64,000 nucleotides of DNA, taken from NCBI GenBank assembly GCA_035473115.1, contig DATION010000005.1:86339-150338 (forward strand), given 5' to 3'. Positions 10,305 through 51,456 of the stretch are shown piece by piece. This DNA comes from Candidatus Udaeobacter sp. Lineage in GTDB: Bacteria; Patescibacteriota; Patescibacteriia; Magasanikbacterales; GWA2-37-8. A program made the position numbers and the translations under genes. Positions within the stretch are counted from its first letter, which is position 1. Every line of letters starts with the position of its first letter. The notes under the pieces are model-generated. The model made no database searches and was not told the origin of the DNA. It saw nothing but the letters and a program-made list of their open reading frames with translations.

Positions 10305-10308
10305 ACAA

Positions 10309-11202: not shown

Positions 11203-11204
11203 AT

Positions 11205-18572: not shown

Positions 18573-18619
18573 ATTTTAGCGCTAAAAAGCACCTTTAGAA
18601 TAACATAGAGAAAATCGAG

Positions 18620-18670
18620 CGTCAAACAAAAAAGGCCGCATCTCCCGCCACAGAGATTTGGCCCGACGAC
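18620..18670 (-). terminator. Rho-independent terminator of the GC-rich gene
   Basis: ggcc(aa)atctc...gagat(gc)ggcc hairpin followed by TTTTTTGTTT on the minus strand. A 20-bp perfect palindrome ggtcactcctaggagtgacc lies nearby at 18713-18732. Confidence 0.45.
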
Positions 18671-18747
18671 TACCCGTTCACGCTGTCTCGCGACAGTGCG
18701 AATATTGGGCTGGTCACTCCTAGGAGTGACCAAATGTACTACTTGGT

Positions 18748-20007
18748 TTACTTCTGACTTTCCTGCAGTTCCGCGGCGTTGGAATACCAGAGCGCGATCT
18801 GCAGATCTTCCTCGTTCCTCGCCAACTCCGTATTGTGCGCAGCTGCGAGACGGAATTTACCACCATGCTTCTTCAGAACAGTGGCGGCCAGCTTTTCAGC
18901 CGCCGCTTTACCCAAGTCAGGATTGCTCTTCGTCAGCAGATCAATCATCTGCTGCAGATTTGCGCTCCGAGCTTCGGCTTCAACCTGCTCAGACTGAACC
19001 TGATGATCACACACCTCCTGAGCAGCTTTGGTCTTGGCCACGGCCGCGATCCAGGTTTGCGAACTGGACAGAAGCACCATGTTGTGCTTGGTGGGAAGTT
19101 TGCGCATCTCGGTCTTGAGATCATCGAACTCCGCTGGCGTAGAACGATCGCTGATCTGCTTACCCCAGGCCTTGATGAGTTGGTTAACGAGCTCAATATG
19201 ATGTTGCAACGCAACCCCATACTCGCGCAGGCCATCAGATTCGTTCCTGCGCATCTCACCTTGAACCCACTTGATCCAACTGATAAGCAATCCGCGGAGA
19301 GCGAGCGCATAACCCACACGCCTGAACACAAGGATAGGGAGCTTCTCCCCAATCTGCTTTTCGAGCACCACGACCGCTTCTGGAATCGCAGGCAATGCTG
19401 GCTTCTGAGCGGGCTTGGACGTTGGAGCAGTCGCAACAGCAACCTTCGTCTTGACAGGTTTATCTTTCTTGGTTGGTTCGGGCTGGACGAGAGCATGGTC
19501 CTGCCCACCGACGCGAGAGTCAATCCATTCCTTCAGATCATCGGCCGTTACAGGTCGTGAAGCGGCAACAGCCTGGCGGAATGCTGCTAACTTATCCTGC
19601 CTCTCGCGATCGGCACGCGCTTGAGCAGCCCGTGCCTCACGATCAGCTTGCTCCTGTGCGGCCTTCCGCTCAACAGCTTCCTTGGCGAGCTTCGCCTGCC
19701 GCCGATCCTGCTACGTCTGTCGGATCTCCTTCATGGATCCTTCGTCACCGAGAACATCTTCCACGGTGAGCGCTCCCACCATTTCCAGTCGAACCAACTC
19801 CTCCTGCGCCAACGCACGGAGTTCATCGGACGACGGTTCATCGGAGTTGCTCGCGGTCGGCTCCGGAGGAACCGAAACGAGCTTGGAGATCTCCGTAGCA
19901 GCCTCGCCTTCAACAGGCAGGTTGCCGCGGTTCTCGGTGGAGGAGGTGCCAGTGGTAACAAGCGAGAGAATAGAAACAGTCGTCATGACGAGACCCTGCC
20001 TTTCCAA
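18748..20007 (-). pseudogene. GC-rich (about 62%) foreign-looking gene of 419 sense codons interrupted by one in-frame TAG (plus-strand cta at 19711-19713)
   Basis: The track ORFs 19711..20007 and 18748..19395 are in the same frame. The stretch 19396..19710 is open in that frame with no ATG. Third-position GC bias is consistent with coding. Confidence 0.5.
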
Positions 20008-20375
20008 TTAGCTGCTAAATAAGGCTCTTTTATCCCACTTCTGCAGAATGCAGACTAGGAGAACCTTCCGCCATTAAATATCAAATTAATGATATAAACT
20101 GGCTGAAAATCCTCTTAAAAATAACAGAATAATATATCATAAATTACACTCTATGTCAATGGTTATTTTTTTAACCAACCTCACAAAACTAAGTTGCCAC
20201 TAAAATCAAAGCTTCCGCCCCGCTGCGGCTAAGGGCGGATAGTAAACTGACACAAAAACAATCCGCTTGGGCGGGTTGTTTTTGGTCGTTAACTCGCCGC
20301 TTGAGCGGCATAATTAGCCAGACGGATTTCTCTGCTTGTGCAGATAAATCTCGTCGCTAATTAAAAAAAGACCAT

Positions 20376-20487
20376 TGTCCTGGCGACGGCCTACTTTTGC
20401 ATTTCTGCTATCATCGGCGCTGAGAGGCTTAACTTCTGTGTTCGGGATGGGAACAGGTGTGACCCTCTCGCTCATGTCACCAAGACA
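20376..20487 (-). rRNA. rrf: 5S ribosomal RNA
   Basis: CCTGTTCCCATCCCGAACACAGAAGTTAAGC core and terminal helix CTTGGTGAC/GTCGCCAGG, with an extended flanking processing stem gaccattgtc/gacaatggtc. Confidence 0.85.
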
Positions 20488-20604
20488 ATGGTCTTTTTCT
20501 TTTTTAAATTTATATTTTTAACAACAATTTATAAAACAATAATAAGGTTCTGCTTATAAATTAGACGATAATTTATAAGTTCAAAGCACGTCTTAGTGCT
20601 TCTT

Positions 20605-23637
<3,033 letters not shown>

Positions 23638-24080
23638 GCACGACTAAAGCACTAAAAAGTGCTTCTCCCATTTGCGGATTTCCTATTAAGAATCCGCGGG
23701 ATTAATCGCGTTTGTGTAGTATTACCTACATACCCTATTATTGTTTATAAATTGTCAACGTACACGCGTTGCAACCTTTACTTTCATTTCAATCAAAGTG
23801 AGTCCCGAAGGAGAATCCCATTGGGAAAATCTGCCTTACGGTTCTCGCTTCGCCTGAAATGATTTTTATTTTATCACTTTATAAAACACAACGACCGCCT
23901 GCAAGCGGTCTCTCAAAACTGAGGATTTAACCACTCGGACTAACTGAGTAAAAATTTAATCTGTTTTATCATTTTGATATTTTAGAATAAAATTTATTTA
24001 CCCAGAGGTCCAAGCGATACTTTTTTTGTATTCTACTTGTGGACTTGGTTCGTAATTAAATTACGATTTTGCGTAGGAGC

Positions 24081-29120: not shown

Positions 29121-29474
29121 TTATTTTACTAATCTGCCAAAAATAAAAGCCGTCAAACCATAAGAAACCGAGACTAAAATAAACCCGATAATAGCGGCGT
29201 ACATAGCTTCTTTGGCTTTGGAAACAAATTCTTCATTGCCTCGGGCAGTCATCCAACGTAATCCGGCATAAAGAATAATAACCAAAAAAACTAAACCAGC
29301 AATAGACAAGACTATGCTGATGATAGAGCCAATAACTGAATAAATATTGGTATTACTACTATACTGAGCCTTACGAGCAGTATCTTCCAAACCAAAAGTT
29401 TGCGCCCTCACCGGACTTACTGCCATTAATAAAATGGCGAACATTATGGCTGATAAAGCAAACTTTTTAAGCAT
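29121..29474 (-). CDS. VirB2/TrbC-like pilin family protein (signal peptide + 2 TM), paralog 1
   Basis: Signal peptide ...VRAQT, then a conserved ILYAGLRWMTARGNEE...KAK...IIGFIL core. Confidence 0.5.
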   Translation of the reverse strand: MLKKFALSAIMFAILLMAVSPVRAQTFGLEDTARKAQYSSNTNIYSVIGSIISIVLSIAGLVFLVIILYAGLRWMTARGNEEFVSKAKEAMYAAIIGFILVSVSYGLTAFIFGRLVK

Positions 29475-29582
29475 AATCTTATGAATAATATGTTAAATAT
29501 CATAGCACACCTTGATTAATCTGTAAAAATAATGTATGCTATTTGTGCTATACTAAAGTTTCTATAACTAATACTAATTGAA

Positions 29583-29654
29583 GACTCCATCGTTTAATGG
29601 ATAGGACACTAGCCTTCTAAGCTGGATGTGTAGGTTCGATTCCTACTGGGGTCA
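29583..29654 (+). tRNA. tRNA-Arg (anticodon TCT)
   Basis: Anticodon arm CTAGC-CTTCTAA-GCTGG, T-arm GTAGG-TTCGATT-CCTAC. Confidence 0.8.
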
Positions 29655-29694
29655 CAGAGCTTCGCTAAGGCTACGCCCTGCAAGCTAAATACAT

Positions 29695-29767
29695 GGTGGC
29701 CATGGTATAACGGTTATTACGTGAGATTGTGGATCTCGCAACATGGGTTCAACTCCCATTGGCCACC
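29695..29767 (+). tRNA. tRNA-His (anticodon GTG) with G-1
   Basis: Extra 5' G pairing with discriminator C73, anticodon loop TTGTGGA, T-arm ATGGG-TTCAACT-CCCAT. Confidence 0.8.
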
Positions 29768-29811
29768 CAAAAGTTGTTTTTTATAAACAACAAACACTCA
29801 TCTTATCAGGT

Positions 29812-30555
29812 ATGAAACTATCCTTTGCTATACCCGCATATAATGAAGCAGGAACTATTGGCAAATGTCTAGACTCAATACTTAACGAAGTAAAAAAAAA
29901 TTCATACATGGATAATGTTGAAATTATTGTAGTTGATAACGCTTCAACGGATAATACGGCAGAAATTGCAAAAAAATACCCGGGTGTAAAAGTTGTGCCT
30001 GAGCCGCGCAAAGGACTATGTTTTGCCAGACAACAAGGTTACCAGTCATCTACCGGAGATATGATTGCTAACGTAGATGCCGACTCAGTTCTTTCACCAG
30101 GTTGGATCAATAAAGTTTTTGCAGAATTTTCTAAAGATGAAAAACTGGTGGCTTTAAGTGGTCCGGTAATTTATTATGACCTTGGCACGTTTGACAACTT
30201 ACTTACTTCTATTTTTTTACACTTAGGATTTGTTTTACACCTTATCAACCATCACATTCTTCGCAGAGGCTCTATGCTGCAAGGAGGAAATTTTATCTTG
30301 CGTAAAAGCGCTTTGGAAAAAGCCGGCGGCTTTGATCTATCGGTTGATTTTTATGGAGAAGATACAAATATCGCGCGCCGAATCTCTCCTCTGGGCAAAG
30401 TAAAATTTACTTTTCAACTGCCAATTTATACTTCCGGAAGACGATTGCGAGCCGAGGGAGTAATTATGACTGGCGCGCGCTACGCCATCAATCATATTTG
30501 GATACTTATTTTTAATAAACCGTTTACAAAAAAATACCAAGACATTAGGTACTAG
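29812..30555 (+). CDS. Family 2 glycosyltransferase
   Basis: SFAIPAYNEAG ... VVDNASTDNT ... DAD motifs. The start is moved to the ATG at 29812 because the track start overlaps tRNA-His. Confidence 0.8.
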   Translation: MKLSFAIPAYNEAGTIGKCLDSILNEVKKNSYMDNVEIIVVDNASTDNTAEIAKKYPGVKVVPEPRKGLCFARQQGYQSSTGDMIANVDADSVLSPGWINKVFAEFSKDEKLVALSGPVIYYDLGTFDNLLTSIFLHLGFVLHLINHHILRRGSMLQGGNFILRKSALEKAGGFDLSVDFYGEDTNIARRISPLGKVKFTFQLPIYTSGRRLRAEGVIMTGARYAINHIWILIFNKPFTKKYQDIRY

Positions 30556-30607
30556 ATTATAAAAACTTTTTCTAAATTATCTGGTCACGTTTGCAGAAGC
30601 GCTAGAA

Positions 30608-31036
30608 CTAAATGGATCCGGCAGAAGAATTTTTGGTAGTAGCTGAAATTAAAACAGTAATTACGTAAGTTGTTAAAGCGTAAGCGGACAGAATAATTGC
30701 CAAACCAATAACTCCGTTGGTTAACAAGCTTTTGGCTGTGCTTATCTTATCCTCTTCACCGCCGGCAGTCATCCATAAAAATCCGGCATACAAAGCCATT
30801 ACAAAAAATATTATCCCCACAAAACCTAAAGCAAACCGGATAACTGTCGCTACCATTAAACGTATATCTTTTGAGTTTGCGTTTGAAGTGTTAACACCGG
30901 CGGCATTACCGGCTGTTCTTAACTGATCTAAGGCTTCTTGCTGAACGCTAGACGTAGCCGCTACAGCATAATCACTAAAAACAAAACCAACAGTAAGCAG
31001 TAGTAGTGAAAAAAAAGTTATAAATATTTTTTGCAT
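30608..31036 (-). CDS. VirB2/TrbC-like pilin family protein, paralog 2
   Basis: LYAGFLWMTAGGEEDKISTAKS...IGLAIILSAYALT core. Confidence 0.5.
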   Translation of the reverse strand: MQKIFITFFSLLLLTVGFVFSDYAVAATSSVQQEALDQLRTAGNAAGVNTSNANSKDIRLMVATVIRFALGFVGIIFFVMALYAGFLWMTAGGEEDKISTAKSLLTNGVIGLAIILSAYALTTYVITVLISATTKNSSAGSI

Positions 31037-31042
31037 AAAAAA

Positions 31043-31417
31043 TTAAGAAGTAAGCTCAAATGATTTTGATAGAACAAAATAGGTAATGCTATAAGCTGAC
31101 AAAATAATAATTAAACCGATTACCGCAGTCTTTAAAATTCCCATTGCTTTTTCGATATTTTCTTCATTGCCGCCGGCTGTCATCCACAAAGCTCCGGCAT
31201 AGACAGTTAAAGCCAAAAATACTACTCCCAAAGTTCCTAAAATTACTTTGATAAACTTACCAACTGTTTCGGAAAAAGTATTGCTGCCGACAGCTGTTGT
31301 TGAATAACCGCTTTTTTTGGCAATATCTTGAGATAAGTCAGTTTGGGCGTAAATATTTGCAGCCGGAGATAATAATACACCAAACGACACTGCCAGTATA
31401 ATTAAAAATTTTTTCAT
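31043..31417 (-). CDS. VirB2/TrbC-like pilin family protein, paralog 3
   Basis: VYAGALWMTAGGNEENIEKA core. The start is set at the internal ATG (MKKFLIIL) to avoid overlap with the upstream gene. Confidence 0.45.
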   Translation of the reverse strand: MKKFLIILAVSFGVLLSPAANIYAQTDLSQDIAKKSGYSTTAVGSNTFSETVGKFIKVILGTLGVVFLALTVYAGALWMTAGGNEENIEKAMGILKTAVIGLIIILSAYSITYFVLSKSFELTS

Positions 31418-31428
31418 ACAAAACTTTT

Positions 31429-31941
31429 TTAGCATGATGTTAGTGTCCAGACTTCTTGAAAACCGGTGCAATCGGACTGAACACTAGGGATATTTTGACC
31501 GCTGGAAGCATTATGACAGCAGCCAAGATTAGCAGTGTTTACTGGCGGAACATTATTACTTTGCTGATTTGTGCCGGCCACCGCTCCTAATTTAGTAGTT
31601 ACGAAATAAGTGATGGCATAAGCAGACATAATAATAACCAAACCGATAATAGATGCTTTTATAATCTCTTTAGCTTTTTCTACGGGTTCTTCAGCTCCTT
31701 GCGCCGTCATCCACATCACTCCGGCATAGATAGTTAGAACTAAAAATATTGTACCCACCAAAGCTAAAATAGTTTTTATTACGGTAGCGATAGCACTCCC
31801 TAAATCACTTGAAAGCCCAGTTTTGCTTGGGTCAGCGACTTTATTTAAAATTTTACCGGCATCTTTTAATCCCTGAGCCGAAACAAACACCGGGGTCATT
31901 AAAGCCAAAGCTATACTTACAAGAACTATTTTTTTAAACAT
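31429..31941 (-). CDS. VirB2/TrbC-like pilin family protein, paralog 4, with a Cys-rich C-terminal tail
   Basis: IYAGVMWMTAQGAEEPVEKAKE core. C-terminal ...GCCHNASSGQ...DCTGF...LTSC. Confidence 0.5.
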   Translation of the reverse strand: MFKKIVLVSIALALMTPVFVSAQGLKDAGKILNKVADPSKTGLSSDLGSAIATVIKTILALVGTIFLVLTIYAGVMWMTAQGAEEPVEKAKEIIKASIIGLVIIMSAYAITYFVTTKLGAVAGTNQQSNNVPPVNTANLGCCHNASSGQNIPSVQSDCTGFQEVWTLTSC

Positions 31942-31974
31942 ATTTTATTTTCAAAAATTTATTTTAAGCTTAGC

Positions 31975-32502
31975 TTAAGGCACACAACATTGAATATTGG
32001 CTGCTCCCGGACAAGCACCAGGTATGTAGCCGCCTGCTCCAGAACAAGCTATGCTTGTATCCTGACAGACACCGCCGAGATCGGTAATACATCTATTTGA
32101 GCTTCCGGAAGAACTGGTAGAGCCGCTGCTAGTAACCTGGGTAAGACTACTAAAGACAAAGCTAGAAATAGCATAAGCGGCTAAAACAATTGCTAATCCG
32201 ATAGCCGCATGTAATAAAATATCTTTAGCTTTTTCTGCTTTATCGGAAACTCCAAAGGCAGTCATCCATAAAAATCCAGCATACAGAACCAAGATAAAAA
32301 ATATACCGCCCACAAAAGAAAGTGCCACACCAACAACATTTCCGATAAGTTCCGGAATTGTGACTGCCGGAGTTGACTTTGTATTTATTAAATTTGTACC
32401 TTGAGCGGCATCTTTTAAGCCAAAATCTTCGGCCAAAACTAAATGAGGAAGAGTTACTCCTAGTATTGCCAAAATTATAAATACTTTTTTTAATGCCCTC
32501 AT
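31975..32502 (-). CDS. VirB2/TrbC-like pilin family protein, paralog 5, with a Cys-rich C-terminal tail
   Basis: LYAGFLWMTAFGVSDKAEKAKD core. C-terminal 8-Cys tail RCITDLGGVCQDTSIACSGAGGYIPGACPGAANIQCC. Confidence 0.5.
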   Translation of the reverse strand: MRALKKVFIILAILGVTLPHLVLAEDFGLKDAAQGTNLINTKSTPAVTIPELIGNVVGVALSFVGGIFFILVLYAGFLWMTAFGVSDKAEKAKDILLHAAIGLAIVLAAYAISSFVFSSLTQVTSSGSTSSSGSSNRCITDLGGVCQDTSIACSGAGGYIPGACPGAANIQCCVP

Positions 32503-32716
32503 AAATAATGAAGTATTTTATCTTGCCTTTCTGAGCATAGTTGAGGAACTCTTTTTTAAACCGCTAAATAATTAAAAAGTTTCTCTACTTTGATCATAAT
32601 GACAGACGCCGTTTTATACTGTATTTAAACAGGGAATTACGCGCTTGTTTATCATGATATTGTCGACAAAACAAGCGCGCTGTTCTTTATAAAACAAATC
32701 CCCTGCTTTAATTTGA

Positions 32717-33097
32717 TTACGGAGCGGTTGTAGCGGAAACTAAACTGTTGATTACGTAAGTTGCCAAAGCGTAGGCAGACAAAATAATCGCCAAACCGAT
32801 AATACCAGAGAATATGTATCCCTTGGCTTCTCCTGTTTGTTCTTCATTTCCACCAGCAGTCATCCATTTAAAACCACCGATTAAGATAATTACTACGGCT
32901 ACGATACCGAGCAACCCCATAGCGGTTTTAATAATGCTAGCTACTGTGACGCGGATATCTTTTTGGCCCAAACCTGTGGAAGCGCCATATTGAATACCTA
33001 AGTCACTTGGAGTAACTAATGTTTGCGCCATTACCAAAGATGGAGCCATCATACCGATAGCTGCTAAAACAGCAAACAATTTTTTCAATTTCATCAT
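32717..33097 (-). CDS. VirB2/TrbC-like pilin family protein, paralog 6
   Basis: LIGGFKWMTAGGNEEQTGEAKG...IGLAIILSAYALATYV core. Confidence 0.5.
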   Translation of the reverse strand: MMKLKKLFAVLAAIGMMAPSLVMAQTLVTPSDLGIQYGASTGLGQKDIRVTVASIIKTAMGLLGIVAVVIILIGGFKWMTAGGNEEQTGEAKGYIFSGIIGLAIILSAYALATYVINSLVSATTAP

Positions 33098-33195
33098 ATT
33101 TTCACCCCCTTTCCAATATAAAATATATTATAATTTTCCATAAAATTTTTCACAAACCGCTAACTTTAAAATCTAAATTACTATACCATACCCAT

Positions 33196-33579
33196 TTACT
33201 TTTTGCTAGTCAGGTAATCGGTAAATGTAGACAACAATAAATAACTTGAAAAAACAAGAATTACACCGATAATTGCCCAGACCATGGTTTGCGTTCCGGT
33301 TTTTACTTTTTCTGGATTGCCGGCTGAAGTAAGCCATTGGAAGCCTCCCCAAATCAACATTAGCAAAGTTAAAGCACCAATAATTCCCAGAGCTCCTTTG
33401 ATAATAACATTAATTATACCGGTAGCTTCGGTGCCGCTGCTTAATGGGTTATCTAAACTGCAAATTTCTTGACCGCTGGCGTTAAAATTACAATTTTTTG
33501 CGGGAGAAGTTTGAGCCAACACAGAAGCAGGCAAAATAGCTAATCCGATTATATATAAAACTAAAATTATTTTTTTCAT
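33196..33579 (-). CDS. VirB2/TrbC-like pilin family protein, paralog 7
   Basis: IWGGFQWLTSAGNPEKVKTG...IGVILVFSSY core. Confidence 0.45.
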   Translation of the reverse strand: MKKIILVLYIIGLAILPASVLAQTSPAKNCNFNASGQEICSLDNPLSSGTEATGIINVIIKGALGIIGALTLLMLIWGGFQWLTSAGNPEKVKTGTQTMVWAIIGVILVFSSYLLLSTFTDYLTSKK

Positions 33580-33806
33580 AATCGAAATGAATGAGTTGAA
33601 TAATTTTAGATAAAATAATGAGTTTACTCAATTATTTTATCTAAAATTATTCATGAGTGAATGAGTTTATATTTTAATATAATCGAAATGAGTGAGTAAA
33701 ATAGACAGTGAGACATTTCATAGATCGCTTGCGAGCTAGAAATGTTGAATCTGGATATTTTTGAACGAATGAGTTTATATGGGCTTTAGCCCATATAATA
33801 ATATTT

Positions 33807-34598
33807 TTATACTCCTAAAGAGCTAAATATAAAGCTGGCCAAAACATAACTAGCTAACATCATTACTACCCCCAGAGTAGTCCAAACCATTGTGATTTTA
33901 GCTTTTTCTACCTGCTCGCTGCCACCCGAAGCGGTCATCCATAAAAATCCGGAATAAATATATAAAACCAACGCTATTGAACCAATAAAAGCTAATAAAA
34001 TTTTTATGGTTCTATTGATAATATCGGTCGGACCGGAAAAATTAGCTTTATTCAATATTGATCTGGCTTGATTTTTTAAATCTCTGGCACTTGTGCCAGA
34101 CACGCCGCTGCCAGCGGGACAAGGGTCTGAAGTTATATTGCCTTGGCATGATTTCTTGGCCGCTGAATAATACATTGATTCTATATTTTGACAGCCATCA
34201 GCTTGAACACAACCCCACTGTCTCAGAGGGGGCGGACAAGAACTCGAAATAGAACTGCAAAAATCAAAATTATCTCCGCAATAGTTTGCACATATTCTAT
34301 TGGCAGTTTCTACCGAATCAGCTGAAATAGTTTTACATTCTTCGTTTTTAATACAGCCAAACTCTTTTTCCGGCGGGCAAGGCACCGCTAAACGAAGACA
34401 ATTACCGCCAATATTAAGGCTGGCACAGGAATTTTGACAAACAAAAGCGGCAGACTCAAAACTGCCAGCTGTGACATTTTTACAACCCATATTTCCTTGA
34501 CAGCCAAACTCATCCGCTCTTGCTTTATCAGCCTGAGCTGAAAAAAATAAGATACCAGATAAAATAAATAAAATATATTTTCCTCTAAAAATTTTCAT
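33807..34598 (-). CDS. VirB2/TrbC-like pilin family protein, paralog 8, with a roughly 150-aa Cys-rich (26 Cys) mature N-terminal region
   Basis: Repeated G-C / C-x-x-C units (EFGCQGNMGCKN...VCQNSC...) followed by a YSGFLWMTASGGSEQVEKAK core. Confidence 0.5.
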   Translation of the reverse strand: MKIFRGKYILFILSGILFFSAQADKARADEFGCQGNMGCKNVTAGSFESAAFVCQNSCASLNIGGNCLRLAVPCPPEKEFGCIKNEECKTISADSVETANRICANYCGDNFDFCSSISSSCPPPLRQWGCVQADGCQNIESMYYSAAKKSCQGNITSDPCPAGSGVSGTSARDLKNQARSILNKANFSGPTDIINRTIKILLAFIGSIALVLYIYSGFLWMTASGGSEQVEKAKITMVWTTLGVVMMLASYVLASFIFSSLGV

Positions 34599-34610
34599 AC
34601 ATCAATTGTA

Positions 34611-35045
34611 TTAGCCTAACAATGTATAATCTGTTTTTAAACCAACAGCTGTTCCCAAGAATCTGACCAGCATATAAGCGCTAAAAACTATAACTAACCC
34701 GATAATGGCAGCCACCAAAATATCTTTACCTTTTTTTACCTGATCAGAAGATCCTTGAGACAGGATTAAGGTAAACCCACCATAGATAAAAGCCAGCAAC
34801 GCTAAGGCGCCGACAATCGTAAATAAATAACTGACAAACTTTAATAAGAGAATTACAAATATACTTATACTGCGGCATTCACCTTCATCGCTAGGATTGC
34901 CGGTCGGCTCTTTTAAAGCGCAGTCGGGAATAAATTTACTAGTTCCGGATGCTGTATTGGCAGTTTGTGCCAAAACTTGTTTCGTACCAAAAAACAGCGA
35001 TGCGAACATTGTAAAAATTAAAATAACTTTTGAAAAACGAGACAT
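34611..35045 (-). CDS. VirB2/TrbC-like pilin family protein, paralog 9 (most diverged)
   Basis: IYGGFTLILSQGSSDQVKKGKD...IIGLVIVFSAYML core. Confidence 0.4.
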   Translation of the reverse strand: MSRFSKVILIFTMFASLFFGTKQVLAQTANTASGTSKFIPDCALKEPTGNPSDEGECRSISIFVILLLKFVSYLFTIVGALALLAFIYGGFTLILSQGSSDQVKKGKDILVAAIIGLVIVFSAYMLVRFLGTAVGLKTDYTLLG

Positions 35046-35049
35046 AATT

Positions 35050-36414
35050 TTATTGTGTCTGACTAATCTTGGCCGCGGCGCGATTTAAAATTTCCTGTTT
35101 CCATTGCAATTCCTGCTCTGACTGAGGCGCCGGAAGCAACCATTCCCGCGTCATATCATTTAAGGCTTTAACGGCAGTATCATAATCCTTGCCTTTATAC
35201 CAACTATCAGAAACTAAAGCTTGTGAAACAAATGGATAAAGTTCGGTGTTATCCAACTGCATAGCTATATAAGCGCGCAAGGCAGATGGCCGGCCGGATT
35301 GATCTAAGTAATCTTTGGTGGCCTTGGAATGAGCTAAGTAATTTAGCAAAGCCCAAGACTCATTTTTGTTTTTTGATTTTTCTAAAACAGTCTGCACCCA
35401 ATAGTTGGCTGCGTTTACCGGCTGTTCGGGATTAAGCTGCAGCATTGGTAAAATAGAAACATTTAACTGCGGAGCGCGCGCTTTTATGACCGGATAATGA
35501 TAGCTATAACCAAAGAAGAATGCCAACGAACCATTAACGAATTTATCCAGAGCATTGTCCATGCTTTCATTCCAAGAATAGGTATCACGGGCAGGATTAG
35601 CAAAATCGGTATAAAAATCCATTACCGACATAGCTCGGCTAGCCTGATTTTGAAAAATAGCTGAACCGTTTTTATCTACCAAACTGACGCCGCTTTGTTT
35701 GAAAAGAATATAAAGAAGATCTTCAAAGCCGGGAATGTTGTTTCCAGTTCCCAGTCCGGCTCCGGATTGTAAAATTTTGCCTGATTTTTTATCAAATTTA
35801 GTCAGCTGTTTAACCGCCTTCTGAAAATCTTCCCAATTTTTTGGCGGCTCAGCCACACCCGCTTGATCGAGCAGGTCTTTATTATAAAATAAAGCGATGT
35901 TTTCTAAAGATAAAGGCAAGCCATAAACTTTTCCGTCCATTATTACGTCATTTTTAACAGCCTGAACATATTCTTTATCAATTTGAATGGCTGTCGGCAA
36001 ATTTACAGTAGGCGTGTCTATAATAGTCTGAGTTCCTAAAGTTGTTTTTTCTACCCGTACCGTGGCGTCCGGAACTGAAGCAGGCATTGGAGATAATTTT
36101 GGCTGATAAAAACGTAGCCAGCGATTGCGCACTGAAATAATATCCGGCCCTTTATCTTCGGCCAAAGCTTCAAGCAAACGCGGATAAATTTCTTCAGCTC
36201 TAAGCTGTTTTAAATTAACAGTTAAATATGGACGATCAGCTTTGTATTTATCTATCTGCACCTGCAGAGCGTCAACATCATCAAAAACAGTCCAAAATTC
36301 TAAAGTGACTGGTTTGGTAGCTTCTATTTGCTGTTGAGACAAACCTTTACAGCCTAAACCAAACAAAGGCAAAGTAATTGCTATTGCTAGAATAGGAAAA
36401 AGCTTCTTAAGCAT
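35050..36414 (-). CDS. Extracellular solute-binding lipoprotein of an ABC transporter (sugar type)
   Basis: Lipobox LFGLGC after the signal peptide. 454-aa SBP_bac_1-like composition. Confidence 0.65.
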   Translation of the reverse strand: MLKKLFPILAIAITLPLFGLGCKGLSQQQIEATKPVTLEFWTVFDDVDALQVQIDKYKADRPYLTVNLKQLRAEEIYPRLLEALAEDKGPDIISVRNRWLRFYQPKLSPMPASVPDATVRVEKTTLGTQTIIDTPTVNLPTAIQIDKEYVQAVKNDVIMDGKVYGLPLSLENIALFYNKDLLDQAGVAEPPKNWEDFQKAVKQLTKFDKKSGKILQSGAGLGTGNNIPGFEDLLYILFKQSGVSLVDKNGSAIFQNQASRAMSVMDFYTDFANPARDTYSWNESMDNALDKFVNGSLAFFFGYSYHYPVIKARAPQLNVSILPMLQLNPEQPVNAANYWVQTVLEKSKNKNESWALLNYLAHSKATKDYLDQSGRPSALRAYIAMQLDNTELYPFVSQALVSDSWYKGKDYDTAVKALNDMTREWLLPAPQSEQELQWKQEILNRAAAKISQTQ

Positions 36415-37395: not shown

Positions 37396-38829
37396 TTATT
37401 TTACTACTTCCCAACTGATAAGATTGTATTCCGAACCAACCGGAAATCCTGGTGGCGGGCCATAGGTTAGGTTGGCATCATAATTATAAGTTTGGGTCTG
37501 ATACCCGGAAACAACATTATTGCCTGATAACCAAGAAACACCACCCACTTTGTACAAAATTCTTGAACCAAACACATTTAAAGCTGTTTTTACGGGACTG
37601 CCTGAGCCGCTATAATTATATCTTTTGAAAGTTCCGTTCTGAGAAAGCAGAGCGCCATCAATATTCAAAGTATCCGGGCTACTATAAGGAAGTAAGATAT
37701 TTTGATCAGCGATTAAGCCTAAATTATTAGTGCCGTCAGCTGCCAGATAAGTGAGATTGCCATTGATAACCATAAACTTGCCGACTCCACCACCGACTGT
37801 TACTCGGCCTTTTAAAACTCCATCTACCCAAACATTATCATCAACATATATATAGCTACTGGTAGGAATGGTATGCACTGTGGCTGAACCAAATGTTTTA
37901 GCATCAATACACGGCGTTGGATTAACATCAAATGTTGTGCCGGTATCGGGATCTCTATCTTTGCCGGCGTGAGCTGTACAAGTTAAAACTTTTGAGACAC
38001 TGACTGTGCCATTATTTATAAAACGAATTCGCCAGCCCAATTGACCGGAAGAAGATAAATATGGCCAATTCCCTCCGCCTTCAGCCATTGTTGCCGCTTT
38101 AATTTCAGCCAATTTTGCAGTCACAGCCGAAAAATCTTTGGCCGGAACTGGAAATTGCCAATAAGTGGTCGGACCGCCCGCTCCCCAGACACCTGGTTTA
38201 TTACTGCGAGAAGAAGTATTGCCGCTACAATGAATAGTCGGGCAAGTATACGTAGCCATAGCACTCATAACTGGAGCATTAGCCACGCCGTCAAATCTGA
38301 TACCGCCATTAGCCTGAATCTTTCCAAAACTTGGGCCGGTTAAAAATAAATTTGCGTTTTGCAAAACTGCAAAATCAGCCAGGGACGGAAATCCTAAGCG
38401 TGCTTTAATGATCCGCTGACTATTTGTTTGACTGTTAAGCACGCCGGTTGATTGAACGGTAACAACTGTTGAACCGGTGGATGGTTTTGTGATAACCAAA
38501 GAAAATTGTCCGATAACTTTGCCATCTTTATCTTTATAATCATGCACATATGGCCCGGGAGTGCTGGTGCCATGACCATCATAATAATCCGTTTTGGAGT
38601 GAGCTAAATGCCAGCGATAATAATTTATTCCGGCATCGGCTATTTGCAAAGCCATTTCTCGATTATGTTTTCTGTTGGAAGCGGTGTTTTCGGCAACAGC
38701 ATAGCCGGAAAGGCCGAGGACAATTATGGATAAACTAATCGTACCAAAAACCATTACAAACAATAATATATTGCCGCGTTTATTTTTTAAAAATCTTTTA
38801 TAATTTTTTTCTAAAAATTTTAGGATCAT
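37396..38829 (-). CDS. PilX-like pilus assembly/minor pilin-associated protein (PilX_N-type N-terminus)
   Basis: KRGNILLFVMVFGTISLSIIVLGLS hydrophobic segment followed by NREMALQIADAGINYY. Confidence 0.45.
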   Translation of the reverse strand: MILKFLEKNYKRFLKNKRGNILLFVMVFGTISLSIIVLGLSGYAVAENTASNRKHNREMALQIADAGINYYRWHLAHSKTDYYDGHGTSTPGPYVHDYKDKDGKVIGQFSLVITKPSTGSTVVTVQSTGVLNSQTNSQRIIKARLGFPSLADFAVLQNANLFLTGPSFGKIQANGGIRFDGVANAPVMSAMATYTCPTIHCSGNTSSRSNKPGVWGAGGPTTYWQFPVPAKDFSAVTAKLAEIKAATMAEGGGNWPYLSSSGQLGWRIRFINNGTVSVSKVLTCTAHAGKDRDPDTGTTFDVNPTPCIDAKTFGSATVHTIPTSSYIYVDDNVWVDGVLKGRVTVGGGVGKFMVINGNLTYLAADGTNNLGLIADQNILLPYSSPDTLNIDGALLSQNGTFKRYNYSGSGSPVKTALNVFGSRILYKVGGVSWLSGNNVVSGYQTQTYNYDANLTYGPPPGFPVGSEYNLISWEVVK

Positions 38830-38840
38830 ATCCTGCTTAA

Positions 38841-39464
38841 TTAATTATCCTTCAAGTTTCTTAGCAATGCTTTTGATTCAATAAAAAATGGCACCGGAGT
38901 TAAGTGAGGATCTTCGTCAAGCTGCAAAGTAATTTTTACCATTCGCACTTTGGTAATATCTATCGGCATTGGCAAAGAGGCCTGGGCTCCGGAATAGGCG
39001 CTATCATAATAATAAAAAATATTTGTGCTGGTGTTGGCAACATCATGAGCCACTACCGTAATAACCTCATTGCCGGAAGGATAAGTGAGCGGGGTGCCAG
39101 TTGGTTTGATTACACCTTTTTTTAAAGTTCTGTTTGAAAAAAAATACCGCAATCGCTCTCTTAGAGTGTCGCTATCAATATTGCTATAAAAAACTATTGA
39201 TGAAGTGGAAGCCGATTCAATTGGATAGCCGCCAATACTGGAAAGTGAAGCTGTGCGCAATTCATTAACAAAATCCTGCGTCACTTTACGTCCTTCATTT
39301 TGAGTTTTTAATTGTTCCCAAACAATTCCGTTATACCTTGTGCTGGTTAAATAGAGGGCCGAAACTCCTAAAATTAAAAAACTAAATATACCAATAGCCA
39401 CCAGAACTTCTACCAGAGTTAAGCCGCGATTATTAATTTTAAATTCAACAAAAAATTTAGGCAT
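38841..39464 (-). CDS. Type IV pilin-like minor pilin (prepilin-type N-terminal cleavage/methylation motif)
   Basis: NRG|LTLVEVLVAIGIFSFLIL class III signal peptide. Confidence 0.65.
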   Translation of the reverse strand: MPKFFVEFKINNRGLTLVEVLVAIGIFSFLILGVSALYLTSTRYNGIVWEQLKTQNEGRKVTQDFVNELRTASLSSIGGYPIESASTSSIVFYSNIDSDTLRERLRYFFSNRTLKKGVIKPTGTPLTYPSGNEVITVVAHDVANTSTNIFYYYDSAYSGAQASLPMPIDITKVRMVKITLQLDEDPHLTPVPFFIESKALLRNLKDN

Positions 39465-39469
39465 ATATT

Positions 39470-41263
39470 TTAAGGAGACATCTCAACTACGGCTTCGGCA
39501 TTTCCACTGACATCGACAGTGTCATTGGTGGAAGTGTAACCGGACCGAGATACATTTACAGTATACGTATCTGGCGATAAACCGCTAAAAAATATCTGTC
39601 CGGGAGGAATACAGCTGGTAATGTAAGTAAAAGCAACTTCCGAAAGAGTGGGAGTAAAAGAATTATTTGCTGTATTTAAAAATACCTTATATCTTAAATA
39701 CCGGTGGCCATTATGGCCGCTCCAAATTAGCGTGCTAGTCGGGGTATAATAAGTGTCGCTGGCGCCATCTGGTCCGCTAAAATCCCATTGGCTAGGGCTG
39801 CTGGAATTAGTGGAAGCCAATTGAAAAGTAATCGGGTTAACACCTGTCTCGGCAGGCTGAGATAAAGGCGAGAATACGATATTATTGAAATTTGCTGCCA
39901 CTCCCAAATCTATAGTGGCCGACTCTAACCAGCCGCTGCCCAAATAAATACTGCCAACTTTTTTTAATTTTAAATCTCCGTCCGGAAAATTATTTTCTAT
40001 ATTTCCATTGTCGGCAAAATATTGATCCTGATTAAGATAATCCACTTGTCCGGAACCACCGCTCCAATCAGTTTGACGCACAAAACCATAACCGGTTACT
40101 CGGCTTTCGTTATAGCCACTGCCAATAACCTGCACGGTAGCATCGGATAATGGCAAACCGGTACTAGCATCTTTTACTTCTACTAAAAGAGAATTAGCAG
40201 AATGCGGCTGCAAAATAATAGAGGCATTTTGGGTTAAACCAGGCGTCAAATCTATCGGCAATAACGGAGTAGATCCCCCGATAGTATAAGCGGGGCTAGT
40301 AACAGATACATGGTACTTATCCCACTCAAAATTTGAAAAGTTATAATCGCCGCTACTATTAGCGGTTAAATTTTTATTATACTTAAAAACATCCGGACCC
40401 GTACCGATTTTCTTTTCGCCTACTATATTAAACGGTACGCTGGCCACAGAAGCACAGGCCGGACTAATAAAATGCAATCCAAGAGAGCCTGTTTTATCTA
40501 TAGAAAAACTTAGGTCGGTAATCGCTTGACTAACCACATTGGCCGGAGGTTTAACTGGATTTGGTACATCTATACTTACCGGCACAGTATAATCTGAAGA
40601 ATACCCGGACTTGCTGATATTTATATGATAACTTAAAGTGCCGGTAGGAGTATCTATGATCCGTAAAAACCCATCACTATCGGTAACATCGCTAACAACA
40701 ACATTGGGAGTTTGAGCGGTATTAGTTACTGAAACATTAGCTCCAGCTACCGGCAAACCGTTATTATCAAACACTTGGATAAACAGTGCTCCGTTTTGAC
40801 TGGCACCTTCTAGTTGTTTAGGAGAGACAATTGTGCTTAAAATTACTGGCGTTTGCTGCAAACAGCCCAAACAGATGGCCGACATTTCCACCAATTTATA
40901 GTCTGCCGGCGCGGTATCGTTTGGCGTTCCGCCCAGAGTGCCATCAAACGGATCATCTATATTTCTGACGGTGGTAACTAAAGAAAAAATCTGACTATCG
41001 CGGATAGTGCTGGTTACTGCGGGCAGAACACCGCTAGGTATACCATTAATAATACCGACTTGATCATAAGGAAGATTACGAGCTACTTCTAGCCGCTCAG
41101 CCAAAAGCGCAGTTTCCAAAATTTTCATGCGCGACTGATAAACAACTTTAAACACCAAGCTGATGCCAGAGTAAATTCCTAAAGCAAATAACAAAAAAAT
41201 AGCCGAGGCCATTATTACCTCTAGAAGGGTAAAACCTTTTTTGTTTAAAAAAAGTTTATTCAT
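39470..41263 (-). CDS. Large (597 aa) prepilin-type minor pilin / pilus-tip protein
   Basis: KKG|FTLLEVIMASAIF prepilin motif. Beta-rich Thr/Ser/Asn-rich C-terminal domains. Confidence 0.6.
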   Translation of the reverse strand: MNKLFLNKKGFTLLEVIMASAIFLLFALGIYSGISLVFKVVYQSRMKILETALLAERLEVARNLPYDQVGIINGIPSGVLPAVTSTIRDSQIFSLVTTVRNIDDPFDGTLGGTPNDTAPADYKLVEMSAICLGCLQQTPVILSTIVSPKQLEGASQNGALFIQVFDNNGLPVAGANVSVTNTAQTPNVVVSDVTDSDGFLRIIDTPTGTLSYHINISKSGYSSDYTVPVSIDVPNPVKPPANVVSQAITDLSFSIDKTGSLGLHFISPACASVASVPFNIVGEKKIGTGPDVFKYNKNLTANSSGDYNFSNFEWDKYHVSVTSPAYTIGGSTPLLPIDLTPGLTQNASIILQPHSANSLLVEVKDASTGLPLSDATVQVIGSGYNESRVTGYGFVRQTDWSGGSGQVDYLNQDQYFADNGNIENNFPDGDLKLKKVGSIYLGSGWLESATIDLGVAANFNNIVFSPLSQPAETGVNPITFQLASTNSSSPSQWDFSGPDGASDTYYTPTSTLIWSGHNGHRYLRYKVFLNTANNSFTPTLSEVAFTYITSCIPPGQIFFSGLSPDTYTVNVSRSGYTSTNDTVDVSGNAEAVVEMSP

Positions 41264-41354
41264 TATTTATATTATACCATAACTTAACAAGTAAAAAAAT
41301 AATCCCAAAAACATTTTCTGAGACGAAGTTTAATCAGCGCGATAAACAGCAAAT

Positions 41355-41723
41355 TTATTCTAAGTAGGCCTTATTGGCGATAAGCGAGAGTAATTCTTTT
41401 ACTCTACTTTGACCATCTGTTTCGGTTTTGGCGGCCAAAAAAGCATTCCATGTTTGGGTGAGAGATTCGTCATGGATATCGGCAACTGCGTTTTGCAATT
41501 CAACTCTGGTATTAAAATCTACAGCTCCGTTGGCATTTAAAACTTTATCGATAAATAATTTTTGAAATGCCAGGATCTTTTTATTATGAACAGTCCTTGA
41601 AAGCTGGTTTTGAGCTATATCTAATTGTGATTTTTTGGACGCAAATTCAATCCCCCAAACGATATTGGACGCTAACAAAAGAAAGATAACAAATAAGGTC
41701 GTCTTGTTAAAATAATTCATCAT
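41355..41723 (-). CDS. Hypothetical small membrane-anchored protein
   Basis: Single N-terminal TM segment, 122 aa, no recognisable motif. Confidence 0.4.
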   Translation of the reverse strand: MMNYFNKTTLFVIFLLLASNIVWGIEFASKKSQLDIAQNQLSRTVHNKKILAFQKLFIDKVLNANGAVDFNTRVELQNAVADIHDESLTQTWNAFLAAKTETDGQSRVKELLSLIANKAYLE

Positions 41724-41742
41724 ATTTATATTAAAGAATATT

Positions 41743-44700
41743 TTATTTAACTGGTAATGTTTTTCTGGATCGGCGACCTTTTATAAAATCAACCAAAAGA
41801 GCTATGCCAAAAATTATAATGATTAGCATCTTCCAATCAATAAATGTTTTGTACCACTGCCTAATTTCTATCATCTCAATATTAAAATGAACTCCTGCTC
41901 CTTCTTTAACATCAAACTGATCACTCTTATAGGATTTATACCCTTTGGCTTCGGCAGTTATATAATACTTACCCGGCGGAACTAAAAATGAATATTTGCC
42001 GGTATTGTCGGTAATTTGCGGATTGGTTTGGTGATATTTTGCCGCATCCCAAAGAGACGGAGAGTCATTTATAATATTAACTAACGACACCTTAACATTA
42101 TCCAATCTAACCTCTTTGCCTTGAGGATTTTTTTCATAAACATAGCCTTCGGGATCAACTACTGTAATCATTCGCAATTCCTTTGATCCTTTCTCTTTAT
42201 CTTTATAATTTATAACCGTAAGTACTTCATATTCTCCTTCTACTTCTGGCGCAGGAATTTCCGCTGTAAATATTCCATCATGATCCGGATCGGTATATTC
42301 AAATGAAAGAACGAGCAACTCCTGTTCGACTGTCGTTGTCGCCGGCAAAGTTTGCGCTATAGCAGCCTTAACAAAAAGTGCCTTGGCAACTAAAGAATTA
42401 ACCGGGACTTCCAATGCTGTCTTTTCCGGTTTGCGTTTAAAAAGCAGATAACCTTTAATACTTTCGGCAGGGCTTTCCGGCTTTACAGACAGAACAATAG
42501 GCTTACCGGCAATTGTTTCTATTTTTTGTTCTATCTCTCCTTTGGAAGTTAAAGCGATAGACGAGCTTAGAGGAATAAGCCCTTGGCTTCCTTCTGCCAC
42601 CAAAACTTCCGGAGGAATTTTTTCTTTTTCAGTAAATACAGGCAGATTAATACTTGTGTTCTTTAATTTATCCAAGTCACTTATTTTTGTAATTCCAAGA
42701 TTGGCAAAGACTTTGCCGAGCTCCGGAAACTCCGTAGTTAATTTTAAAATATTACTTGGCAACGGAGCAAGAGAAAAATTATAAGCTGTGCTGCTTGATA
42801 GCAGATTCCAGCTTCCTTCCAAAGCTTGCGGCGGTTCCTCTTTGACTACGGGAATTACGGGCTGTTCTAATTCCGGTTTAGGTTCGGGAATTTTAATAAT
42901 ACTACGAATTAAATTTCCAATAAAACCTGTCTTTGTGTTTTGTGGCGGCAGCTGAGGCAGAGAGGAAGAATACACTACTTTGGAAGTGAGTGTTTCTCCA
43001 CAGCGAGAATATTGATTACAGAATTTTACATAAAATGTTTTTTCTCCTACTCCGCCTTGAAGAACCCAGTTAACAGAATCTACATAATCAATATAGGCTG
43101 CCGGAACAAACAAAGAATTATCAGAAATTTCTATTTTCGTAGCATCCTGTCCTCCTCCAAAATGGAAGGTAACCAAGCCATTTGTCGTTGGATTTGGAGT
43201 TATATAAAATATATATCCGCCTTCGGGAGCGCGCGGCGACGGCGGAGTAAATCCGCCACTTCCTCCGCCAACCGACGATGGGGTTGAAACAGGACAAGCC
43301 GCAGTAGTAAATGTCTGATCGCTGCCATATCCTATGCCCGCGCTGTTTCTGGCATAGCTTCGGAAGTGATACTGGGTATCACAAATTAAGGCTGAAAGCG
43401 AAGCGCTAAAAGATCCTGCGCTGTGCGAACCAGATTCGGTTGTGGTTGCATCATAGGCAATAGTATGTCCCCATTCAAATCCGCGAACACTGGCATTTTC
43501 ACCGCCAGTACCATCAATTGAGCCATTTAAAGTGGCAGCTGAATCTGTGACTCCAGACGCAGCCGAAGTAGTTAGAACAGGTGTAGAGGTAGGCAAGGTT
43601 GTAGTTGATTGAATTGATCCATATCCTATTCCAGTTGAGTTTATGGCATAGGCTCGGAAATAATAAGTCGTACTTGGTGAAAGACCGGTAATGCCTTCGC
43701 TAAATGAAGCTGTTCCAGATTGCGCTCCAAGAGTGGAAGTCGCGATTGTTGTGGCTAGTGTAGGTGAGGTTCCATAGGCAAAACCGGATTGGGTCGCATC
43801 AGCTCCGCCAGTGGCAGTAATAGAACCATTTAATGTCAAAGTCGAAGCAGTAACAGAAGAAGCTGGAGAAGTAGTAACTGTCGGCACACAGGCGCTGGTA
43901 GTAAAGGTTACATCAGACCCATACGAAGTGCTTACTGGGTTAGTGGCGTAAGCATTTACATGATAAAGGGTGTTGCAAGTAAGCGAAGTGATTGAACCGG
44001 TAAACGCCCCTGTTGAAAAAGAACCACTTTCAGTTGTGGTTGATCCATAAGAAATACTGGTGCCATAAACAAAACCACGCACAGTCACATTGGCTCCGCC
44101 AGTGGCAGTAATATTTCCATTGCCCGTTGCGGCAGTCGCAGCAATCGCTGAAACTGATTGAGTGGTAACAGTTGGACTGATTGAAATTGTAATAGATAAA
44201 CTTCCCGAATCAGTAGAAGTATTGGCAGCCGCATCAACTTGGAAAGCTTTTATTGAGTGCGAACCTTGCGAGAGCGCGGATGAAGTAACCGTCACTATAC
44301 TGGAAGCACAAGTGCCTGTACCCAAAACAGTGGAGCTTTCTGCCAGAGAAACAGTTGCTCCGCTTTCACAAGAGATAACAAAACTAGGTGTTGTATTAGA
44401 AGTAATATCATCAGTTGAAGATGAGCCGTTATCAGTGCTGGTTGTCATATTAGGAGTGCCCGGGGCTGAAGGCGCGGCAGTATCAATGGTAAAAGCAGTG
44501 ACAGAAAGAGGTGTGGATGTATTGCCCGTAGTGTCGGTAACACTAATCGTACAGTTAGAATGAGTACCATCAGAGAGGGAAGCAAATGTAATTGTGCTTG
44601 TGCCGGCTGAAGTGGAAGTTGTGACGCTGCTGCAGTCACCTCCATAAGTAATTGTCCCGGCTTCGTTTGTATTAAAAATATAATTTGGAGTACTATCATT

Positions 44701-51354: not shown

Positions 51355-51456
51355 TACCCCCGCCGGGACTTGAACCCGGATCGTATCTTCAGAAAGATAG
51401 GCTGTCACGCTTCGGATTACAAATCCGATGTTCTATCCAAATTGAACTACGAGGGC
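51355..51456 (-). tRNA. Atypical tRNA-like gene: Thr anticodon (TGT) with a 32-nt variable region containing a 6-bp hairpin; G1-U72
   Basis: Perfect D-arm (GTTC/GAAC), anticodon arm (TCGGA-TTTGTAA-TCCGA) and T-arm (CCGGG-TTCAAGT-CCCGG). The acceptor stem has two G-U pairs. The 32-nt variable arm is incompatible with a canonical tRNA-Thr. Confidence 0.45.

Follow-up and report, generated by a model that had tools for sequence, protein, structure and literature searches.

Arrays of VirB2-like pilin genes are known from patescibacterial genomes. Quinonero-Coronel et al. (2025, PMC12102498) described 441 such arrays in 383 patescibacterial assemblies; they comprise 2–11 genes, either in tandem or with a single gene intervening, and their members are on average 25% and at most 54% identical. 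The same study places a pilin gene close to virB4 in 1135 of 1948 assemblies, relates patescibacterial VirB4 to the MPF_FATA class, and in Table S1 scores Magasanikbacteria assemblies as VirB4 “Yes”. In Southlakia epibionticum, a six-gene pilin array sits inside the cluster encoding its type IV secretion system (T4SS) and is essential by transposon sequencing (Tn-seq; Wang et al., 2023, PMC10633639). Here we describe an array of nine pilin genes at positions 29121-35045 of a 64,000-nucleotide stretch of contig DATION010000005.1 (“the window”). With eight adjacent genes and a ninth past one glycosyltransferase gene and two tRNA genes, it is a genuine member of the published class. We hold with moderate confidence that its proteins feed a T4SS surface structure as a fixed set of specialised subunits, encoded by a chromosomal VirB2-like pilin array.

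The window array shares with the published ones the Pfam family PF18895, the phylum-level group of the host, and a tandem arrangement open to a non-pilin interruption; its nine genes fall within the range of 2–11, and the mutual identity of the paralogs (21–46%) within the published spread. It differs in setting: the S. epibionticum array is inside a T4SS cluster, whereas this one lies among the housekeeping genes galU, rpsO, and pnp, with no T4SS gene within 29 kb. It differs also in lineage, the published arrays being most abundant in Microgenomatia and Saccharimonadia and this one coming from ABY1/Magasanikbacteria. All close homologs and syntenic loci are from metagenome-assembled genomes (MAGs) of Magasanikbacteria/Patescibacteria; the host is a Magasanikbacteria-like patescibacterium, in keeping with the episymbiont guessed at in an earlier note on this stretch. 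NCBI labels the identical proteins (including P0001 and P0060), which lie on a contig of 188,981 bp, “Candidatus Udaeobacter sp.” (Verrucomicrobiota), and many related MAGs are titled “uncultured Gammaproteobacteria”. Both labels are likely taxonomic errors, as gene content and homologs alike point to Patescibacteria.

The earlier note had reported nine minus-strand genes, each with a signal peptide and two hydrophobic segments, and this description holds: the nine open reading frames (ORFs), eight contiguous and the ninth apart, are where it placed them (pilins 1–9, Table 1). When the six-frame translation of the window was searched with a hidden Markov model (HMM) built from the nine, exactly these were recovered, at E ≤ 3e-40, with no further pilin copies. 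Since the next match had E = 0.74, the set is not a chance collection. All nine proteins start with a hydrophobic signal-like N-terminus, weaker in pilin 8, followed by two long hydrophobic segments with a short charged loop between them; the signal regions end at an A-x-A-type site, and the +1 residue is Gln in six of the nine and Glu in one. A conserved core linking the segments, also described earlier, is real as a consensus (YAGFxWMTAxGxEExVxKAK...IIGLxIxLSAYxL) but less strict than it had seemed: beyond the initiator Met only five residues are invariant in all nine, and pilins 7 and 9 deviate (WGGFQWLTSAGNPEK; YGGFTLILSQGSSDQ).

This layout, a signal peptide and then a two-helix hydrophobic hairpin of about 70 residues, is that of PF18895 (T4SS_pilin), the profile that the earlier note had named when it assigned the genes to the VirB2/TrbC-like pilins. 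The assignment stands. PF18895 matches all nine (E 1.3e-12 to 7.6e-6), eight of them above the gathering cut-off of 26.6 bits (27.7–48.1 bits) and pilin 2 just under it (26.3 bits, E 7.6e-6). TrbC/VirB2 (PF04956) ranks second and stays just below threshold, the best score being that of pilin 1 (26.1 bits against a cut-off of 27.9, E 1e-5, profile positions 9–89 of 98); for the other eight, E ranges from 6.6e-4 down to no match. In a profile–profile comparison (hhalign) with an alignment built from the virB2/TrbC genes of conjugative plasmids, the nine-pilin profile aligned over 64 columns and both helices, with a probability of 78% and E 1.7e-5, a score that membrane-helix composition may inflate. 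The best NCBIfam model for all nine is NF045849, whose cut-off of 40 bits is passed only by pilin 7 (40.7 bits; others 12.9–33.8), and an identical protein is named “pilin” in NCBI. A phage or holin origin was considered and rejected: PHROG gave no matches save one at E 0.007, and Pfam only weak noise. A profile search of PDB sequences returned only a spurious match to a designed protein.

In comparison with TrbC/VirB2 of the MPF_T systems (Agrobacterium VirB2, RP4 TrbC), the window pilins have the same A-x-A/Gln site, the same two helices with a short loop, a similar mature core of about 70 residues, and a weak but consistent profile similarity. Their loop, however, is seven residues longer and acidic/basic (EE..KAK) in place of GRASLG, and several of them carry large outer domains that VirB2 lacks. 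The genomic context differs as well: the window genes have no adjacent virB1, virB3, or virB4, while the plasmid virB2 genes that we fetched are flanked by virB1 (another T4SS protein in L091) and virB3. NF045849 (Mbov_0395/MMCAP2_0565), from integrative and conjugative elements (ICEs) of Mycoplasma, offers a second point of comparison, with a wall-less or monoderm host and an MPF_FATA-type system in common; the Mbov_0395-type genes are single genes in ICE transfer modules, whereas the window pilins form a chromosomal array.

One unusual feature of the array is that each position has its own orthologs. The same 8 + 1 layout is found in the closest relative (L001, a Logan assembly) and in more distant genomes (L002/L003 and L004), with best matches pairing the genes position by position. 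We then scanned one genome per species, which gave 553 relatives (the best match 68% identical, the window's own species not being represented), fetched 80 loci from the scan, and assigned each of 674 pilins to the most similar window paralog. Arrays in the 80 loci typically hold 5–14 pilins, with a mode of nine. The order 9-8-7-6-5-4-3-2-1 is exact in eight loci (L001, L002, L010, L012, L014, L016, L035, and L062); about 25 others show it too, but with position 6, 4, or 3 duplicated locally. One-to-one order persists even in genomes with a PNPase about 71% identical to that of the window.

Selection on these genes is purifying. Against L001, the nine ortholog pairs are 63–94% identical, with synonymous sites near saturation and a ratio of nonsynonymous to synonymous substitution rates (dN/dS) of 0.10–0.17, next to 0.03–0.17 for the neighbouring genes. 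The hairpin cores are the most constrained part (dN/dS 0.02–0.13), and the cysteine-rich tails evolve faster than the cores (0.13–0.33) with their Cys counts unchanged. The N-terminal regions, which the earlier note had called hypervariable, are so between paralogs; between orthologs they are not, the short ones of genes 1–6 being 78–95% identical to their L001 counterparts. No long identical DNA tracts, signs of gene conversion, or silent cassettes were found among the paralogs.

These results bear on the published idea that such arrays serve host adaptation or host range (PMC12102498), which the earlier note had reached as well. On that account one pilus subunit would exist in alternative versions, the paralogs, which diversify quickly against host defences or for host range, an idea proposed for the VirB2 clusters that Bartonella and Anaplasma phagocytophilum carry (cited in PMC12102498); there too, divergent VirB2 genes stand side by side in a host-dependent bacterium. 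The low identity between the window paralogs would fit, as would the local duplications in some genomes, the faster evolution of the tails, and outer domains that vary in length and sequence between species. Yet where the Bartonella and Anaplasma clusters are read as antigenic variation, this array shows fixed one-to-one orthology across many species, dN/dS well below 1 in every region tested, and none of the cassettes, tracts, or conversion events named above. Furthermore, each position retains its own architecture, as subfunctionalised subunits, and not interchangeable variants, would. The rapid diversification and antigenic variation suggested earlier are therefore not borne out, and we regard a variation repertoire as improbable; the nine genes appear instead to be an old set of specialised paralogs.

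Table 1. Coordinates and main properties of the array genes and of the features lying between or beside them.
Feature	Position	Strand	Description
Orphan sugar-type solute-binding protein	35050-36414	minus	454 aa; 4 nt upstream of pilin 9
Pilin 9	34611-35045	minus	First gene of the array; 144 aa; PF18895 38.5 bits; Cys pair C42/C57 in the N-terminal mature part
Pilin 8	33807-34598	minus	263 aa; PF18895 27.7 bits; signal peptide, three Cys repeats, linker, hairpin
Spacer pilin 8/pilin 7	33580-33806		227 nt; inverted and direct repeats
Pilin 7	33196-33579	minus	127 aa; highest PF18895 score (48.1 bits, E 1.3e-12); Cys pair C30/C40
Pilin 6	32717-33097	minus	126 aa; plain, zero Cys; candidate major subunit
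RNA hairpin immediately 3′ of pilin 6	32620-32716	minus	Conserved
Pilin 5	31975-32502	minus	175 aa; PF18895 hairpin, Ser/Gly linker, C-terminal tail of ~40 aa with 6 Cys
Pilin 4	31429-31941	minus	170 aa; PF18895 hairpin and C-terminal tail of ~47 aa with 4 Cys
Pilin 3	31043-31417	minus	124 aa from ATG; PF18895 37.5 bits; plain; TTG-extended ORF to 31471
Pilin 2	30608-31036	minus	142 aa; PF18895 26.3 bits; plain, longer signal region
GT2 glycosyltransferase	29743-30555	plus	Splits the array along with two tRNA genes
Pilin 1	29121-29474	minus	117 aa; plain; PF18895 36.1 bits; most TrbC/VirB2-like of the nine

The second unusual feature is the cysteine-rich segments attached to the hairpin. In pilin 8, residues 33–160 hold 16 Cys (not the 26 counted earlier), arranged in three repeats of about 49 aa (residues ~29–160). 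The repeats follow the pattern GC-x5-C-x14-C-x3-C-x8-C-x6-CP, except that Cys 4 and Cys 5 are missing together from the third. A zinc-finger-like, metal-binding reading of the C-x5-C-x14-C-x3-C part was judged less likely, because with the joint loss of these two residues the count in repeat 3 stays even. Structure prediction, which the earlier note had proposed for the Cys-rich regions, was run for pilin 8: AlphaFold gave a predicted local distance difference test (pLDDT) score of 78 for the whole protein, with helices 190–222 and 227–260 forming the hairpin, and of 87 for the Cys module alone, predicted as three small domains of strand–strand–helix–strand topology. A comparison of the module with solved structures returned nothing above noise. 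In a search of 1.84 billion representative proteins, seven clusters matched it at E ≤ 1e-3, six of them pilins and one a spurious repeat protein; this last, a 1529-aa leucine-rich-repeat protein (P0059), was rejected as a compositional match. No Pfam domain was found in the outer segments of any of the nine. Between species, the number of repeats in pilin 8 orthologs ranges from two to about five, and some carry unrelated Cys-rich domains in their place.

Pilins 4 and 5 have their Cys at the other end, in the C-terminal tails that had been noticed earlier and that proved to hold four and six Cys, respectively, and single Cys pairs occur in addition in the N-terminal mature parts of pilins 7 and 9. 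The tail of pilin 5 terminates in CPGAANIQCCVP, and its CPG..CC ending recurs in 12 pilins; 203 homologs of pilin 5 were found, many of them covering 93–100% of the query including the tail. That of pilin 4 is only 40% identical to the tail of its L001 ortholog (dN/dS 0.33), which is 17 residues longer and has, again, four Cys in a similar arrangement.

Over the family, Cys is nearly restricted to the parts predicted to lie outside. It accounts, among 683 related pilins, for 0.09% of the residues of the hairpin core, compared with 3.4% for the mature N-terminal part and 6.3% for the tail at the C-terminus. Of the outer segments with any Cys, 329 have an even number and 45 an odd one; four or more Cys in one outer segment are found in 36% of the pilins. 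With the signal peptide cleaved and two helices in the membrane, both termini would lie outside. From this topology, backed by the Cys statistics, we infer that the N-terminal modules and C-terminal tails are disulfide-bonded outer domains, and the earlier suggestion of disulfide modules fits the even numbers of Cys outside the membrane. The type of outer domain is specific to position: across species, position 9 has an N-terminal outer domain with a median of 94 aa and 8 Cys, position 8 an N-terminal domain of 175 aa and 12 Cys, position 5 a C-terminal tail of 51 aa and 6 Cys, and position 6 no outer domain. Our literature search found nothing that links Patescibacteria, pilins, and cysteine-rich domains.

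Two further observations concern these domains in relatives. Giant fusions of the hairpin to long Cys-rich regions occur at L087 12550 (2060 aa, 105 Cys), L087 9866 (900 aa), L072 7071 (1460 aa, 57 Cys), and L086 9866 (780 aa). In another patescibacterium, a three-pilin array (L005 10469-12272, L006 3079-4882) is followed directly by DsbD-type and thioredoxin-like genes, which hints at a link to extracytoplasmic thiol–disulfide chemistry.

Pilin 6 stands out from the other array genes. It alone is preceded by a strong Shine–Dalgarno sequence (GGAAAGGGGGTG), a promoter-like site (TTGTGA-17-TATAAT) lies upstream of it at 33155-33127, and the RNA hairpin that follows it has a minimum free energy of −35.7 kcal/mol (z = −6.7 vs. 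shuffled sequences) and a stem sequence conserved in L001. This hairpin has no typical T-run and would act as a terminator, an attenuator, or a stabiliser. The protein is 94% identical to its L001 ortholog, and the synonymous divergence (dS) of the gene is 0.33, compared with 0.98–1.87 in the other eight pilins (about 3–6 times higher) and 0.64–1.7 in the neighbouring genes. Its core identity is the highest across loci (median 67%), and position 6 is the one most often duplicated. These signals make pilin 6 a candidate bulk or major subunit.

Directly upstream of the array lies the gene of an orphan solute-binding protein, which matches SBP_bac_8 and SBP_bac_1, has only weak matches to MalE/GanS/UgpB-like proteins, and ends its N-terminal signal in a lipoprotein-like ...LFGLGC; no ABC permease gene is found beside it. 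The association recurs in relatives: of the 58 loci in which the upstream side is visible, 55 have a homolog whose end is separated by less than 700 nt from the start of a pilin gene, among them L001, L002, L004, and also L007, in which the neighbours are otherwise different.

Farther upstream, beyond galU, the minus strand encodes at 37396-46383 a 477-aa protein whose N-terminal helix is pseudopilin-like, two N_methyl proteins, one of 207 aa and one of 597 aa, and a surface protein of 1546 aa (LamG/Big_13). The prepilin-type genes lie some 2.4 kb upstream of where the array starts, and in about 26 loci the three pilus-like genes at 37396-41263 keep their synteny with it, so it might be asked whether a type IV pilus machinery handles the nine, the more so with PilB-type ATPases near the arrays of L031 and L058. 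The window pilins, however, have Sec-type signals and two helices, unlike type IV pilins; Pfam finds no N_methyl match among them, and the class III prepilin signal G/FxxxE, present in the neighbouring genes at 38841-41263, is absent from all nine, which are therefore not type IV pilins. That the type IV machinery handles them is, in our view, hardly credible.

Within the array, the gaps between the eight contiguous genes are 6, 11, 33, 214, 98, 227, and 12 nt. The gap of 227 nt, between pilins 8 and 7, contains a perfect 23-nt inverted repeat (33597-33619/33631-33653) and direct repeats of about 20 nt (33578-33597/33679-33698), with no other copies of either within the window. As the same junction measures 16 nt in L001 and is occupied by a Bro-N gene in L002, the spacer has the look of a hot spot for insertions or of an insert with a regulatory role. 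The 1133-nt gap before pilin 1 holds genes for tRNA-Arg and tRNA-His and, on the opposite strand, the GT2 glycosyltransferase, which probably starts at the Met near 29812, since the listed ATG overlaps tRNA-His. A glycosyltransferase gene is found at this position in L001 and L004 as well, and a different glycosyltransferase in L002.

Several findings weigh against a role of these proteins in a T4SS. Domain searches found no VirB4, VirB6, VirD4, or other T4SS gene in the 64-kb window, and the three large window ORFs with no Pfam match have neither a Walker A motif nor a polytopic membrane profile. The 88 related loci that we fetched likewise showed no T4SS gene out to 10 kb from their arrays, and their large ORFs encode SMC, UvrA, FtsH, IF2, Mg-chelatase-like, and similar proteins, not VirB4; the neighbourhoods of five more distant pilins held further arrays only, again with no VirB4, and a scan of viral contigs gave nothing. 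What does adjoin the array is the type IV pilus-like set with its N_methyl proteins and, in two loci, a PilB-type ATPase. At the level of the proteins, the PF04956 scores are all under the cut-off of Pfam, and fold searches with the model return generic helical hairpins only, which makes them uninformative on family membership. The outer domains of relatives, at 150 to >1900 residues, would be hard to pack on every subunit of a VirB2-type filament, and the case for pilin 6 as major subunit is built from sequence signals. Finally, no pilus has been observed on any patescibacterial T4SS, and Gram-positive T4SSs normally have no pilins (PMC12102498).

The strongest competing explanation is that the hairpin merely fixes Cys-rich domains and small plain proteins in the membrane, where they would act independently of a T4SS as adhesins or as an envelope complex with the binding lipoprotein. 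This would account for the missing T4SS linkage in the window and in the 88 related loci, for the constant linkage to a surface binding protein, and for the hairpin proteins of 780–2060 aa in relatives, which resemble anchored surface proteins, and it agrees with monoderm T4SSs not being known to make pili (PMC12102498). Against it stand the homology to TrbC/VirB2 pilins, the position of the S. epibionticum array within an essential T4SS cluster (PMC10633639), and the pilin genes near virB4 in more than half of the assemblies surveyed (PMC12102498); moreover, five of the nine window proteins have almost no outer domain. We consider simple membrane anchoring rather unlikely, if the chief rival to a T4SS role.

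For the reading that we favour, a T4SS supplied with a fixed subunit set, the steps could be as follows. The proteins would be exported by Sec, their signal peptides cleaved, and the mature parts inserted as membrane hairpins, with both ends facing outward and the short EE..KAK loop in the cytoplasm, as the topology implies. The hairpins would then form a membrane pool of subunits for a Gram-positive-type patescibacterial T4SS, presumed to be encoded elsewhere in the genome, which would build from them a pilus-like surface structure; this step is suggested by the homology and by published work, including the Tn-seq of S. epibionticum. In the class ABY1, T4SS genes are located with comF, recG, and radA. 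Plain and, judging by its sequence signals, strongly translated, pilin 6 would be the bulk subunit, and the others minor or accessory subunits, several with species-specific, disulfide-stapled heads contacting the host surface. The co-located orphan sugar-binding lipoprotein may act with the pilins.

More tentatively, an ancient, operon-like set of about nine specialised subunits may, in the Magasanikbacteria lineage, form one composite organelle, in which the plain position 6 is decorated or capped by minor subunits with lineage-specific, disulfide-stapled mini-domains (such as the triple module of pilin 8, or the domains of up to >1900 residues in relatives) and which works with the binding lipoprotein to recognise, or take material from, the host; we put this forward as possible, and doubtful as a whole. 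A functional analogy is found in the major and minor subunit sets of type IV pili and type II secretion pseudopili, likewise an ordered set with one abundant, plain subunit and several specialised ones; their fold and signal type are unrelated to those of the window pilins, and no common ancestry is implied. If true, the composite organelle would mean that VirB2-family pilins can be fused to adhesin domains and keep a fixed order of subunits; the T4SS literature that we searched describes neither.

Some other features of the window lie apart from the array. The genes for 23S and 5S rRNA are at 20378-23642 on the minus strand, the 23S being 3039 nt long against a model of 2925 positions (about 114 nt of insertions); a 16S rRNA gene is absent from the window, so the rRNA genes are unlinked. 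Downstream of the 5S gene, a region of about 1.7 kb (18600-20300) has about 50% G+C, compared with 36–42% around it, contains overlapping ORFs in several frames, and has no Rfam match at E ≤ 0.01. Three adjacent minus-strand genes at 9564-12350 encode ATP-grasp_2 plus Citrate_bind, CoA_binding plus Ligase_CoA, and a citrate synthase C-terminal domain. Their domains suggest an ATP-citrate lyase or citryl-CoA synthetase/lyase in split form, which would not be expected of a patescibacterium with a reduced genome; the adjoining gene at 6863-7882 weakly matches the catalytic domain of carboxysome carbonic anhydrase. At 51355-51456 (minus), a 102-nt Rfam tRNA match with no ARAGORN call may be a tRNA with an insertion or intron. 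Another cell-surface module is found at 61728-63752 (minus), where a sortase gene adjoins a 443-aa surface protein with Ice_binding-like and DUF11/DUF7507 repeats.

Arrays of this kind are thus already known; what we add is the fixed, old set of genes, the Cys-rich outer domains, the linkage to a binding protein, and the way in which pilin 6 stands out. The papers that we consulted on patescibacterial arrays make no mention of position-by-position orthology, of position-specific or Cys-rich outer domains with their even Cys counts, of the binding-protein linkage, or of a candidate major subunit at position 6. In this lineage, the arrays look more like a conserved multi-subunit apparatus than like a system of variation, and their variable, Cys-rich parts lie on what should be the outer side of the cell or filament. 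This is of interest for the biology of the phylum, as T4SSs and pilin arrays are essential in the one patescibacterial species tested, and the small, confidently predicted disulfide modules would be convenient handles for binding studies.

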